NCBI RefSeq assembly: GCF_008065095.1
Contig: NZ_CP042911.1
Span: forward strand, 2,400,001-2,432,000
Length of the DNA stretch: 32,000 bases
Origin: Gemmata obscuriglobus
Lineage (GTDB): Bacteria; Planctomycetota; Planctomycetia; Gemmatales; Gemmataceae
Reading direction: 5' to 3'
The notes beneath the pieces are model-generated. The model was not told the DNA's origin and made no database searches. It was given only the letters and a program-made list of their open reading frames with translations. Positions 24,257 to 27,265 of this stretch are shown here, in pieces. The position numbers were made by a program, and so were the translations under genes. Within the stretch, counting starts at the first letter, position 1. The number at the start of each line of letters is the position of its first letter.

Positions 24257-24679
24257 TTACTCCCCGATGATCTTGACCAGCACCCGCTTGGGGCGGTGGC
24301 CGTCGAACTCGCCGTAGAAGATCTGCTCCCACGGGCCGAAGTCGAGCTTGCCCTTCGTGATCGCCACGACGACTTCCCGCCCCATGATCTGGCGCTTCAG
24401 GTGGGCGTCGGCGTTGTCCTCGCCGGTGCGGTTGTGGTGGTAGTGGTTCGGGTCCGGGTTGAACGGGGCCAGCTCCTCGAGCCACACCCCGAAGTCGCGG
24501 TGCAGCCCGCGCTCGTCGTCGTTAATGAACACGCTGGCGGTGATGTGCATCGAGTTCACCAGCACCAGCCCTTCCGACACGCCGCTTTTGCGGATCGCGT
24601 CCTCGACCTGCGGGGTGATGTTCAGGAACCCCATCTTCGTCGGCAGGTTGAACGTCAGGTACTCGGTGTGCGATTTCAT
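24257..24679 (-). CDS. yjbQ: YjbQ/UPF0047 family protein (secondary thiamine-phosphate synthase-like)
   Basis: 140 aa. '[39 protein letters not shown]...WLE' and 'DNADAHLK....G.EV.V.I..GKLDFG.WEQIFY.EFDG' are typical YjbQ blocks. Its ATG overlaps the macro gene stop (ATGA at 24676-24679). Confidence 0.85.
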
Positions 24680-25467
24680 GGCGGTTCCTCGTTCGAGGGC
24701 GTCCCGCCCATCTTATCCGGAGCGCCTTCAACGCGGACGGACGAAGTCATTTCGCCCGAGTGGCACCGCCTCCAGTTCGCGTTCGGCCCGACGACGAACG
24801 GTTGCGCGTCCAACCCTTTCGGGACGGACACGCGAACCGGCTCTTCCCCTTCCAGGTCGTGTCCGCCAAGCTGGCTCAACACCGCCGTGCGCAGGGTGTC
24901 GTAGTCCCTGAACACGTACTCGCTGAACAGGGTGAAGGCGGTCCACATCAGGTTGGCGCACACCCGCGGCGGCACCCGGCCGGTCGCGGCGCCGAGCCCG
25001 GGCAGCGCCAAGGACTCGATGCTCCCCGGTTCCTTTGCGTTCTGCATGTGGACCGCCTGAAATGCAGCCGCGCACGCCAGAGCCACGTTCAACGTGTCAC
25101 TGATGTCCTGGGCGGACTGCACCATTGTTGGGGTGGAAATCAGGAACCGCGGGCGGAGCCCGCCGGTCGGCACGCACGTCGCCGCGCCCACCGGCATCGT
25201 TCCGCCGTACCGTTTCGCGATCTCGTCCTGAACCAGCGCCTGAATGCGCCCGCGGAAGTGGCGGTTAACGGCCGCGTCCACTCCGCCGTCCATCCGCCCG
25301 AGTGAGTTGGTGGGCGTGACCCAGGCGTCCGTGCGGCGGGCGGTGATCGAACCGCGGACGATTTCGACGTTGGGCACGTCTGCAAATACCGCCTCCCAGG
25401 CGTCGGTGACGGCCCGGTTGACGTCCACCAGAACGACCTTCAGCGCCGGCAGTTGAGAGGTAGTCAT
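24676..25467 (-). CDS. Macrodomain protein (predicted ADP-ribose binding / ADP-ribosylhydrolase)
   Basis: The start is taken at ATG 25467 (AGAGGG lies 6 nt upstream). The longer ORF to 25779 would run through the divergent gene's start. 'VVLVDVN...[24 protein letters not shown]' (cf. N-x6-GG[VLI]D of MacroD-type domains) and '[15 protein letters not shown]' (second glycine-rich loop). Confidence 0.75.
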
Positions 25468-25639
25468 ACGGCCCTCTGTGGGATTGAGTTGAAGACGGGT
25501 TCGGTGCGGGAACGGTACCGCGCCGGGGTGTGGGGCGGCAGGTCGGTTGCAGCCGGTGCGCACGAGCGCGACGGCCCACCCGACATCGCGGCGCCGGGCA
25601 GCCGGTGGCACAATACCCACCAACTCAGGAGCCCCAGAA
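25468..25639. promoter_or_regulatory. 172-bp divergent intergenic region shared by the macrodomain operon and the UNG-ART gene
   Basis: This is inferred from the head-to-head gene arrangement. AGGAG at 25627-25631 lies 8 nt before ATG 25640. I could not call -35/-10 boxes confidently. Confidence 0.4.
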
Positions 25640-27265
25640 ATGAGCGCCGACACGCTCCCCGCACCCGCCCCACCGAACGACCCGCTCGCGCTGGCCGAAC
25701 TGTTCGCCGGCGGGGGCGAAGACTGGTTGCCCGTTCTCAAGCCGGTGATCGATTCGCAGCCCGCCGCCCACACGTTCATCGGCCCGAAGCGGGGGCAACA
25801 GGTCGTCCCGGTCCGCGAACTGACCTTTCAGGCGCTCAAGCCCAACCCGCCGCACAAGTGGAAAGTGGTGGTGTTCGGACAGAACCCGTACCCGCGGGCC
25901 GAGAGCGCCACCGGCATCGCCATGTTCGACAACGCGTTCGGCAACTGGGCCGACAGCCAGTTCGGCAAGGTCATCACCATCCGCTGCATCATCAAGGCGG
26001 CGGCGATGTGGAAGCACAAGATCCCCAAGGCCACGCCCATCGCCGACATCCGCGCGCTGCTCAAGAAGCACGACACCGTCCAACCGCCCGGCTGGTTCCA
26101 GGCGATGCTCACCCAAGGCGTGCTGCTGCTCAACGCCGCGCTCACCGCCAGCGCCGACGGCGCGCTCGCCACCGACCAGCACACCGCGTTCTGGCGGCCC
26201 GTCGTCGAGAAGGTGGTGGACCACATCCTGCGCGCCAAGCAGTCGGCCGCGGCGCCGGACCGCGGGGTGGTGTTCGTGTGGTGGGGCCAGCACGCCCGCA
26301 ACCTGAAAGACGTGGTGCTGCGGCTCCAGCGGCACTACCCGGACGTGAAGGTGCGGCACATCGACCACGCCAACCCCGCCGCCCAGGGCGACATCTTTTG
26401 CAACGGCGACCACTTCGGCGACGTCAACGACGCCCTCCGCGCGCTCGGGGCCGAACCCGTCGACTGGCTCCCGAGCGTCGGCTGGGACCGGCCCGCCTCG
26501 GTTGCGGCCGACGCGCCCGCGGACGACACCGCTGCGCGGATGGGCGCGTTCATCTCGTCCACGATGGAACTCCACAAGCTGTACCTGGAGCGGTTGCAGA
26601 GCGTTAAGGACGAAGGGCTGGCCGAACTGCCGGCCATCACCGGGCTGCTCGGGGGGCTGCTCCCGAGCTTCGCCGAAGCGGCGGCCGGGGTCGGGAAGGC
26701 GCTGCCGGGGTTGGACGGTTATTTCCGGCGCGCCCAGGAGTTCGCGGGCCGCCGCGCGGGCGGGGCCGGCGCCCACGGGCTGACCGCCGACGAGATCGCG
26801 GCCGTTCACCTTTACACGTGCGAGTCGGCCTTCTACCGGCAAATCAACGCCGCGCTGCGGAACCCCGACCGGGCGGTCGTCGCGCCGTACCACGACTACC
26901 TGCGACTGCTATTCTCGGCCGTCGCGCGGCTGCCGCAGCGGCGCGCGAGCCTGTGGCGCGGGGTGCCGCTCGACCTCCGGGGGCAGTACCCGGTCGGCCG
27001 GGTGGTGACGTGGTGGGGCGTGTCGTCCTGCACGTCGGAGGTGGGGGTGGCGCGGGCGTTCCTCGGCTCGCGGGGCCGGCGGACGCTGTTCGAGGTCGCG
27101 CCGGTCACGGCGGTCGGCATTCGCGCCTTCTCGGCGTTCACCGGTGAAGAGGAGTTCGTGCTCGCCCCCGGCACCCGGCTGAAGGTGGTGGACGTGGCGA
27201 CCGAGCGGGGCGGGCTGAGTACGATCAAGCTGGCCGAGCAAGCGGAGCAGCGGCTCGTGGCGTGA
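25640..27265 (+). CDS. Two-domain protein: N-terminal family-1 uracil-DNA-glycosylase-like fold + C-terminal R-S-ExE ADP-ribosyltransferase (C3/VIP2/pierisin-type) domain
   Basis: The start ATG 25640 has an AGGAG Shine-Dalgarno motif. UNG-like blocks occur in canonical order: 'KVVVFGQNPYP..ATGIAMFD', 'QGVLLLNAALT', 'VVFVWWGQHARN', 'HANPAA..NGDHFGDVNDAL..GAEPVDWLP'. ART blocks: 'HLYTCESAFYRQINAALRN', 'SLWRG', 'VSSCTS', 'FTGEEEFVLAPGT'. Confidence 0.8.
   Translation: MSADTLPAPAPPNDPLALAELFAGGGEDWLPVLKPVIDSQPAAHTFIGPKRGQQVVPVRELTFQALKPNPPHKWKVVVFGQNPYPRAESATGIAMFDNAFGNWADSQFGKVITIRCIIKAAAMWKHKIPKATPIADIRALLKKHDTVQPPGWFQAMLTQGVLLLNAALTASADGALATDQHTAFWRPVVEKVVDHILRAKQSAAAPDRGVVFVWWGQHARNLKDVVLRLQRHYPDVKVRHIDHANPAAQGDIFCNGDHFGDVNDALRALGAEPVDWLPSVGWDRPASVAADAPADDTAARMGAFISSTMELHKLYLERLQSVKDEGLAELPAITGLLGGLLPSFAEAAAGVGKALPGLDGYFRRAQEFAGRRAGGAGAHGLTADEIAAVHLYTCESAFYRQINAALRNPDRAVVAPYHDYLRLLFSAVARLPQRRASLWRGVPLDLRGQYPVGRVVTWWGVSSCTSEVGVARAFLGSRGRRTLFEVAPVTAVGIRAFSAFTGEEEFVLAPGTRLKVVDVATERGGLSTIKLAEQAEQRLVA
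25700..26473 (+). other. UNG-like domain of the fusion protein. The Asn codon replacing the catalytic Asp is at 25883-25885, and 'HANPAA' replacing HPSPLS is at 26366-26383.
   Basis: Coordinates are derived by in-frame counting from ATG 25640. Comparison is with the E. coli/human UNG motifs GQDPYH, GVLLLN, LLWGS.AQ and HPSPLS, recalled from memory. Confidence 0.65.
26772..27262 (+). other. ADP-ribosyltransferase domain of the fusion protein: Arg codon of 'WRG' at 26957-26959, 'SSCTS' at 27023-27037, 'EEE' at 27146-27154
   Basis: The R / S-T-S / E-x-E triad occurs in canonical order and spacing, preceded by the 'YT....Y..IN..LR' helix typical of C3-like ARTs. Confidence 0.7.

Follow-up and report, generated by a model that had tools for sequence, protein, structure and literature searches.

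A glycosylase-like ADP-ribosyltransferase paired head to head with a macrodomain protein in Gemmata obscuriglobus and actinobacteria: a candidate cassette for reversible ADP-ribosylation

The planctomycete Gemmata obscuriglobus harbours two divergently oriented genes in the 32,000-nucleotide stretch of its genome analysed here (contig NZ_CP042911.1, positions 2,400,001–2,432,000; hereafter the window, numbered from its first letter). The first, UNG-ART (25640–27265, forward strand), delimited by its open reading frame (ORF) and start codon and by Pfam matches, encodes a 541-residue protein in which a uracil-DNA glycosylase (UDG) fold is joined through a helical linker to a mono-ADP-ribosyltransferase (ART) of the R-S-ExE type. 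The second (24676–25467, reverse strand) encodes a macrodomain protein of 263 residues (Pfam Macro, E 2e-9), and the two start codons are separated by a 172-bp intergenic region (25468–25639). Chance adjacency is ruled out: the two genes form a conserved unit. Their products very probably work together as writer and eraser, or reader, of ADP-ribose. More specifically, the pair may serve reversible ADP-ribosylation of DNA or of DNA-bound targets as part of a damage response, a reading to which we assign a probability of roughly 0.5. The ORFs, their coordinates, the head-to-head spacing and both macrodomain peptides quoted in a first-pass annotation of this DNA are all as described there.

That annotation had proposed a writer–eraser pairing and had set a check on gene neighbourhoods beforehand, which was carried out and bears the proposal out. 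A scan of one genome per species placed UNG-ART relatives in 545 stretches, from which the 80 best loci were retrieved (78 actinobacterial and two from Gemmata); two contigs of metagenome-assembled genomes (MAGs) and one Streptomyces plasmid were examined in addition. Macrodomain neighbours were counted by tblastn with residues 1–217 of the Gemmata macro protein as query, because the filter on GC content at third codon positions used in ORF clustering let antisense shadow ORFs through. A macro homologue lies directly upstream of UNG-ART in 80/80 genome loci and is divergent in 79, at a distance of 56–541 bp (median ∼220); in one locus the genes are co-directional, the macro gene lying 49 bp upstream. 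In the fetched set as a whole, macro adjoins UNG-ART in 83 of 83 loci. The actinobacterial macro homologues are 52–66% identical to the Gemmata query. The two planctomycete-like MAG contigs (L085 and L086; 75–80% identity) also contain the divergent pair, surrounded by sulfatase-rich or housekeeping genes. On the plasmid of Streptomyces sp. Caat 7-52 (NZ_CP098484.1; L084:7155–9560, forward strand) the two genes are fused into an uninterrupted ORF of 801 codons (WP_251091506.1), whose product starts with the macro domain and continues, after a Pro/Ala-rich linker, with the UDG-like domain and then the ART. A third conserved gene was also sought by ORF clustering, and none is common to more than 13 of 81 loci.

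UNG-ART has more than 1100 relatives in the databases. The best 120 are 70–97% identical over their full length and, among these, the named ones are nearly all Actinomycetota, including Nonomuraea, Streptosporangium, Micromonospora, Streptomyces and Kitasatospora. Identity between phyla amounts to 70–75%, and both genes are under purifying selection, with pN/pS (the ratio of nonsynonymous to synonymous polymorphism) between G. obscuriglobus and Gemmata algarum equal to 0.20 for UNG-ART and 0.03 for macro. In a rough neighbour-joining tree with short branches, the Gemmata/MAG clade is sister to the actinobacterial clade and is not nested inside it, on which ground a recent transfer out of actinobacteria was rejected. 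ABGO01000009.1 and independent read assemblies also contain the UNG-ART gene of G. obscuriglobus UQM 2246, in an unchanged gene order. No description of the UNG-ART fusion or family was found in the searchable literature, although comparative-genomics reviews outside it may mention it in passing.

The first-pass annotation had described the protein as an R-S-E ART with a UNG-like head, and both halves of that description are upheld by the UDG fold retrieved with Foldseek, the Pfam match and the invariant catalytic residues. The ART catalytic domain (approximately residues 381–541; 26780–27262, forward strand) matches Pfam ART PF01129 over residues 366–536 (E 1.4e-11; 44.6 bits versus a cut-off of 22.3). 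Arg440 (LWRGV), Ser462-Ser463 (SSCT) and Glu503-x-Glu505 (EEE) are invariant in an alignment of 16 sequences that includes protist members, and the three motifs predominate across 89 sequences. Its Foldseek neighbours are Vis, Tre1, ExoS/T, XopAI, HopU1, C3 and ART2.2, the top match being the Vis toxin, crystallised with agmatine. Motif and fold thus both assign the domain to the R-S-ExE (cholera-toxin-like, ARTC) clade, and transferase activity is predicted. The arginine-specific R-S-E enzymes with ARH partners (Tre1-Tri1 and DraT-DraG; as folds also Vis, ExoS, C3 and ART2.2) share with it the R / S-T-S / ExE motifs and the fold; here, however, the partner is a macrodomain instead of an ARH/DraG fold, the N-terminus adopts a UDG fold and secretion features are missing.

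The UDG-fold domain (approximately residues 12–285; 25673–26494, forward strand) resembles most closely the UNG of Nitratifractor salsuginis (5x3g/5x3h), an unconventional family-1 enzyme that is both a Foldseek match (target template modelling (TM) score 0.72–0.77) and the best full-length sequence match in the PDB (E 1e-11). A literature search for the Nitratifractor UNG found no paper on that enzyme. The two proteins have in common the overall fold, the GQxPYPRxES stretch of motif A and the pocket Asn in GVLLLN; unlike the Nitratifractor enzyme and family 1 in general, the Gemmata domain carries Asn in place of the catalytic Asp and H-x-NPAA in place of HPSPLS, and is fused to an ART. It is not a canonical UNG: NCBIfam UNG models match with E ∼1e-21 to 5e-21, but the best score, 75.4 bits versus a cut-off of 162, lies under every UNG cut-off. 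Motif A (GQNPYP in Gemmata) reads FGQNPYPR in 88/89 sequences and FGQSPYPR in the other one, the catalytic Asp of GQDPYH being found in 0/89; some protist members display S or A at that position. Motif B (HANPAA in Gemmata) takes the form H-[PAC]-NPAAQGD across the same 89 sequences in place of HPSPLS, with the intercalating Leu changed to Ala, and its His is absent from several protist members. The α/β fold of UDGs is present, the uracil-pocket Asn165 (GVLLLN) is invariant and the pocket Gln and Tyr are retained as well. Between Gemmata and actinobacteria the UDG-like domain is the most conserved part of the protein (79% identity), followed by the ART (74%) and by the linker (54%). This last segment (approximately residues 286–380; 26495–26779, forward strand), which might instead be an N-terminal subdomain of the ART, was delimited by the identity comparison and by an AlphaFold2 model of UNG-ART (mean predicted local distance difference test score (pLDDT) 79) with helices at 296–320, 344–354 and 359–372. 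UDG families 2 and 3 use Asn chemistry. Judged by its residues, the UDG-like domain would serve for binding or, alternatively, be a glycosylase that works with Asn as those families do.

The family-conserved part of the macro protein comprises residues 1–232 (24772–25467, reverse strand) and contains the N-x(6)-GG-[VLI]-D motif, which is of the MacroD type (PMC8120803), as N54-SLGRMD-G61-G62-V63-D64; N54, G61, G62 and D64 are invariant and V63 is nearly so. The second loop, G157-L-G-A-A-T-G163, is divergent and lacks an aromatic residue, versus the G-[VIA]-[YF]-G phosphate-binding loop of MacroD-type proteins. The best PDB match, by sequence as well as by fold, is yeast Ymx7/YMR087W (1njr; sequence E 1.9e-6, fold E 6e-9, 222 aligned columns), a Macro2-type protein, and the fold match runs through the C-terminal region beyond the core macro fold. 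The Gemmata protein differs from Ymx7 in its MacroD-type motif and in its Pfam Macro_2 (PF14519) score of 24.8 bits, just under the gathering cut-off of 27.

A C-terminal extension of approximately 70 residues without a recognisable motif had been ascribed to the macro protein. The extra C-terminus is real, but it breaks up into three parts of different standing. The first, about 40 residues reaching to approximately residue 217, is conserved in the family and helical in the model, with the stretch CANLMWT..TLF...F.DYD.LR....LG....ERVRI.PP emerging from the alignment; the second is a variable tail of about 15 residues; the third, the last 31 residues (233–263), exists only in G. obscuriglobus. 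The AlphaFold2 model places helices at 167–183 and 189–200 and has pLDDT values below 50 for residues 226–263. The macro protein of G. algarum is 232 residues long, and members of the family measure 220–235. Alignment of the DNA of the two species, AAC TGG TGA in G. algarum versus AAC TGG AGG in G. obscuriglobus, discloses a 2-bp (GT) deletion in the latter. The deletion removes the stop codon, so that the ORF runs on through a 90-bp spacer into the yjbQ start and gains residues 233–263 (24676–24771 with the stop codon, reverse strand). As it is found in three independent assemblies, the 263-residue form is a real allele and not a read error.

The same indel accounts for the ATGA overlap (24676–24679) between the macro stop codon and the start of the yjbQ/UPF0047 gene downstream (24257–24679, reverse strand; PF01894 E 7e-36, identified by Pfam and NCBIfam matches). 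Translational coupling of macro and yjbQ had been suggested from this overlap, which is indeed present and is the product of a lineage-specific 2-bp indel. Across the 83 loci yjbQ adjoins the pair only in the two Gemmata genomes, and it is absent from both MAG loci: it is a Gemmata-specific passenger outside the conserved pair. Candidate module parts that were rejected on these grounds are yjbQ itself, a pentapeptide-repeat gene and a gene for a 235-residue protein, all three confined to Gemmata and the last two to G. obscuriglobus.

In actinobacteria the macro gene is preceded by a recurrent promoter-like element. Of the 78 actinobacterial loci, 46 have the strict motif TGTC[AG]GTG-N8-TAnnnT directed towards the macro gene, its 5′ end lying ∼62–68 nt ahead of the start codon, and 64 have the relaxed form GTC[AG]G-N10-TAnnnT. 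The strict motif is strongly enriched between genes: 50 of its 54 occurrences in 1.65 Mb of locus DNA fall within 20 kb of intergenic DNA. A similar motif, TGTC-N12-TAnnnT, is directed towards UNG-ART in 24 loci and, in several of those from Streptomyces, ends 8 nt before the start codon. By sequence, the macro motif matches the PafBC consensus tGTCgg(N10)tA(N3)T (PMC8635444); promoters of this RecA-NDp type serve the DNA-damage regulon of actinobacteria (PMC6789036). The intergenic regions of the loci were also screened for exact LexA SOS boxes (GAAC-N4-GTTC), and none contains one.

The 172-bp intergenic region of G. obscuriglobus is 90% identical to that of G. algarum. The −10 part of the actinobacterial PafBC promoters (TAnnnT, as the reverse complement) can be aligned with its macro-proximal segment 25508–25540 (GAACGGTACCGCGCC...), where the GTC −26 element is replaced; the pattern suggests a −10 of common ancestry whose activator site is specific to the lineage. 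On the UNG-ART side, the sequence and comparison with related loci define a GGCACAATACCC box (25607–25618), followed by a GGAG ribosome-binding site (25628–25631). The box is common to 33/80 related loci, with 41 occurrences in the whole 1.65 Mb of locus DNA on both strands. In other lineages the UNG-ART leader consists of a GGCACAAT(T/G)CCCC box, an 8-bp GC-rich hairpin and the ribosome-binding site, in this order; it lies ∼30–75 nt upstream of the start in L007, L012, L025, L085 and approximately 30 other loci and is common to actinobacteria and a planctomycete-like MAG. The hairpin stems show compensatory changes (CCGTGCCG/CGGCACGG, CCGCACCG/CGGTGCGG and CCGTGTCA/TGACACGG): 92% of cells are paired and four pairs have compensatory changes, values reached by 0/500 shuffles. 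Gemmata has kept the box and deleted the hairpin. Rfam returned no match in the window, nor in the macro/UNG-ART intergenic region of four related loci; elsewhere in those four loci its matches are tRNAs and one small RNA only.

The family extends well beyond the loci described above. Clustering at 50% yields approximately 20 full-length UNG-ART clusters, 43–67% identical, several of which are eukaryotic (Noctiluca scintillans, Flectonema neradi and MMETSP transcripts). Protist members possess either Lys/Ser-rich N-termini resembling nuclear localization signals (NLS) or SAP, WWE or SAM domains (P0258, P0261, P0265 and P0273). The UDG-like domain is also found fused to a TKL protein kinase (P0302 and P0315: Thecamonas trahens XP_013757660 and a relative), and the ART domain alone occurs behind WWE and C1/ZZ domains. 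We infer from these partner domains a link to chromatin or ADP-ribose signalling, in which the UDG-like domain would act as a reusable sensor or targeting module. Fusion of a non-canonical UDG fold to an ART in some proteins and to a kinase in others suggests that DNA glycosylase scaffolds have been given a new use as sensors, and the protist members suggest that the system works in nuclei too. Two more divergent relatives display other architectures or surroundings. A VWA-UNG-ART fusion of 1051 residues (L089:2814–5969, forward strand; 62% identity) lies directly downstream of a ResIII/SWI2-SNF2/T1R-like helicase gene, with no macro neighbour. Another relative (L088:6001–7632, forward strand; P0241, 66% identity), likewise with no macro neighbour, sits behind a pair formed by a small ORF and a PIN gene (VapBC-like) and is followed by a run of GGACATAT-type inverted repeats.

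Reversible ADP-ribosylation coupled to DNA would bring these observations together as follows. The writer would be the R-S-ExE mono-ADP-ribosyltransferase, whose UDG-fold N-terminus, devoid of catalytic Asp and Leu finger but with a strongly conserved base pocket, may serve as a nucleic-acid or lesion recognition module and target the ART to its substrate, either DNA or a protein bound to DNA. At the expense of NAD+, the ART would then attach mono-ADP-ribose to this substrate, and the macro protein, with its MacroD-type N-x6-GGVD motif and Ymx7-like C-terminal extension, would remove the mark. In actinobacteria the putative PafBC promoter on the macro gene, and in some lineages on the ART gene as well, would place removal under induction by DNA damage or single-stranded DNA. 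The Gemmata pair would represent the planctomycete sister clade, without a PafBC element and with yjbQ as a local addition behind the macro gene. By analogy, an eraser driven by PafBC resembles PARP/PARG-type signalling more than a poison–antidote pair. In the PARP1/PARG system, too, the ART is attached to a domain that senses DNA or lesions and has a macro-fold eraser of its own; the Streptomyces fusion mirrors the macro-plus-ART architecture of the macro-PARPs (PARP9/14/15), and WWE and SAP domains occur in protist relatives. The differences are the following: a mono-ART with R-S-ExE residues instead of the H-Y-E of PARPs, a UDG-fold sensor instead of zinc fingers or a WGR domain, and no evidence of poly-ADP-ribose for UNG-ART.

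Several observations weigh against this reading. ARTs with an ExE motif usually modify arginine, and arginine-linked ADP-ribose is normally removed by ARH/DraG-type enzymes, not by macrodomains; writer and eraser chemistry are for this reason not obviously matched. A UDG-like domain deprived of the Leu finger and the Pro-rich loop may fail to bind duplex DNA. The genomic context of the pair varies, as is the case for accessory and defence genes, and in two divergent lineages (62–66% identity) the available flanking DNA contains no macro gene. The PafBC motif is absent from both Gemmata loci (L001 and L004), including the intergenic region of the window; planctomycetes presumably do not possess PafBC. 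Where present, the motif would be compatible, too, with a feedback loop whereby a toxic ART inflicts DNA damage and the damage induces the antidote. Finally, Ymx7 is known only as an ADP-ribose-1″-phosphatase and is reportedly without activity in removing mono-ADP-ribose from targets (de-MARylation) (PMC6397177).

The alternative that survives best, although we consider it unlikely, is a toxin–antitoxin or abortive-infection module, in which the ART would be a growth-arresting toxin (acting for example on DNA, like DarT), the macro protein its enzymatic antidote, and phage or stress would tip the balance. The first-pass annotation had favoured a toxin–antidote or defence role. ART–macro adjacency is the signature of DarTG, and the linkage observed here is tight; both systems couple an ADP-ribosyltransferase genetically to a macrodomain hydrolase, a putative one in the present case, and have a connection with DNA or DNA damage. 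Flanks that differ between genomes are what accessory or island genes display, a candidate defence gene (PDC-S40) lies two genes away in G. obscuriglobus, the VWA-fused relative adjoins a helicase gene, and PafBC induction of macro could represent a damage-triggered antidote loop. Neither partner resembles its DarTG counterpart, however, as the annotation had correctly noted. DarT, which has a PARP-like fold, modifies thymidine in single-stranded DNA; DarG, a macrodomain of the ALC1/TARG1 type, possesses a catalytic Lys, and its operon is co-directional. In the present pair an R-S-ExE ART of the ARTC clade with a UDG-fold head is paired with a MacroD/Macro2-like protein, and the genes are divergent and do not overlap in a co-directional operon. 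PADLOC, whose models include DarTG, matches neither protein, and the DarG macrodomain matches only weakly (E 0.088).

The broader record of the family also speaks against a conflict role. Identity of 70–75% between phyla and strong purifying selection are unlike the behaviour of fast-evolving conflict genes. The nearest neighbours (136, from 78 loci) do not form a defence island: they are mixed hydrolases, MarR/TetR/LuxR regulators and transporters, with sporadic PADLOC matches that involve mostly generic domains. Plasmids rarely carry the ART (4 of 72,556 records, all large replicons) and no phage copy was found, phages matching only separate UDG or ART fragments. In addition, the ART persists without an adjoining macro gene in the two divergent lineages, and protist homologues bear nuclear or signalling domains. 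Overall, the pair looks less like a toxin–antitoxin or defence system than like a reversible signalling pair.

A second, improbable alternative is that UNG-ART is a bifunctional DNA-processing enzyme. The UDG-like domain would then be an active glycosylase that uses Asn, as do MUG/TDG and SMUG1, on an unusual and perhaps ADP-ribosylated base, and the ART and macro protein would act on the same lesion, abasic site or strand end. The sequence GQNPY stands between GQDPY of family 1 and G-x-NPG of families 2 and 3, which use Asn, and counts in favour of this proposal; so do the preserved pocket residues Gln, Tyr and Asn165 in a domain under the strongest constraint, as well as the promoter link to DNA damage. 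The loss of the motif B His in protists, the replacement of the intercalating Leu by Ala throughout and NCBIfam UNG scores far under the cut-off argue against it.

Still less probable is a role in small-molecule NAD or ADP-ribose metabolism, whereby the ART would modify a small molecule or itself, the macro protein would handle ADP-ribose-1″-phosphate or O-acyl-ADP-ribose, and a free nucleobase or nucleotide, bound in the UDG-like pocket, would act as regulator. Among solved structures the macro protein comes closest to an ADP-ribose-1″-phosphatase, the top structural match of the ART was crystallised with agmatine and the canonical DNA-pinching loops are missing, all of which would suit such a role. 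However, the PafBC promoter and the SAP, WWE and NLS-like elements gained by protist members speak for chromatin or DNA, and the N-x6-GGVD motif is typical of enzymes that remove mono-ADP-ribose. Very improbable is a system like Tre1-Tri1, in which the ART would be exported as an interbacterial toxin and paired with an immunity protein: the ART does resemble Tre1 in structure (target TM 0.73–0.81), but neither a signal peptide nor a secretion-system domain nor a polymorphic-toxin architecture was seen, the immunity partners known for such toxins are ARH-fold proteins encoded co-directionally, and both a macro–ART fusion protein and nuclear-type protist homologues exist.

The reading of the pair as a reversible DNA-directed signalling system can be carried one step further, albeit tentatively and with a lower expectation of being right. 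Actinobacteria, planctomycetes and protists might share an ADP-ribosylation pathway coupled to DNA lesions, in which a flipped or damaged base would be recognised by the disabled UDG fold, the mono-ART would thereby be led to mark the DNA or a protein bound to it, and a damage-inducible macro protein would erase the mark. If true, this pathway would be a so far unrecognised, non-PARP counterpart of PARP/PARG signalling. A rarer alternative for the pseudo-UDG is that of a decoy sensing phage UDG inhibitors.

A system of this kind would be relevant to ADP-ribosylation in Streptomyces, where the relevant transferases are still to be found and many hydrolases are partnerless (PMC5087735). The S. 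coelicolor macrodomain protein SCO6735 is UV-inducible and has a RecA-NDp/PafBC promoter (PMC5087735), and no cognate transferase is known in its genome (PMC5087735, PMC9411070). It shares with the macro gene described here the status of an actinobacterial macrodomain gene behind such a promoter; by contrast, it belongs to the ALC1/TARG1 branch, has 161 residues and stands alone, whereas the present macro protein is of another class and adjoins its ART. The transferases described in S. coelicolor are only SCO5461, SCO2860 and SCO3953; SCO2860 was considered as a homologue of UNG-ART and rejected, being an Arr-type rifampin ART. The UNG-ART/macro family offers an intracellular ART that is conserved and comes with its own macrodomain partner; UNG-ART is present in no fewer than 545 species-representative genomes.

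In the window, a scan for sigma-70 promoters returned no site within 22800–27700, and a terminator scan returned two sites, both inside coding regions, a number below chance expectation. Beyond yjbQ lie the pentapeptide-repeat gene (23647–24240, reverse strand) and the gene of the 235-residue protein (22962–23669, reverse strand), which overlap by 23 bp. The latter protein is a full-length match to the PADLOC candidate defence family PDC-S40 (E 4.6e-84); it has no Pfam or NCBIfam match and contains an Ada-like HRPCAECRR stretch. Both genes are missing at the equivalent locus of G. algarum and look like a strain-specific insertion beside yjbQ. Further along, positions 22027–22740 (reverse strand) encode a stand-alone CoaB-like protein of 237 residues, with the C-terminal domain of DFP and of the phosphopantothenate–cysteine ligase type; it scores well under the NCBIfam equivalog cut-offs and lies outside the writer–eraser pair.

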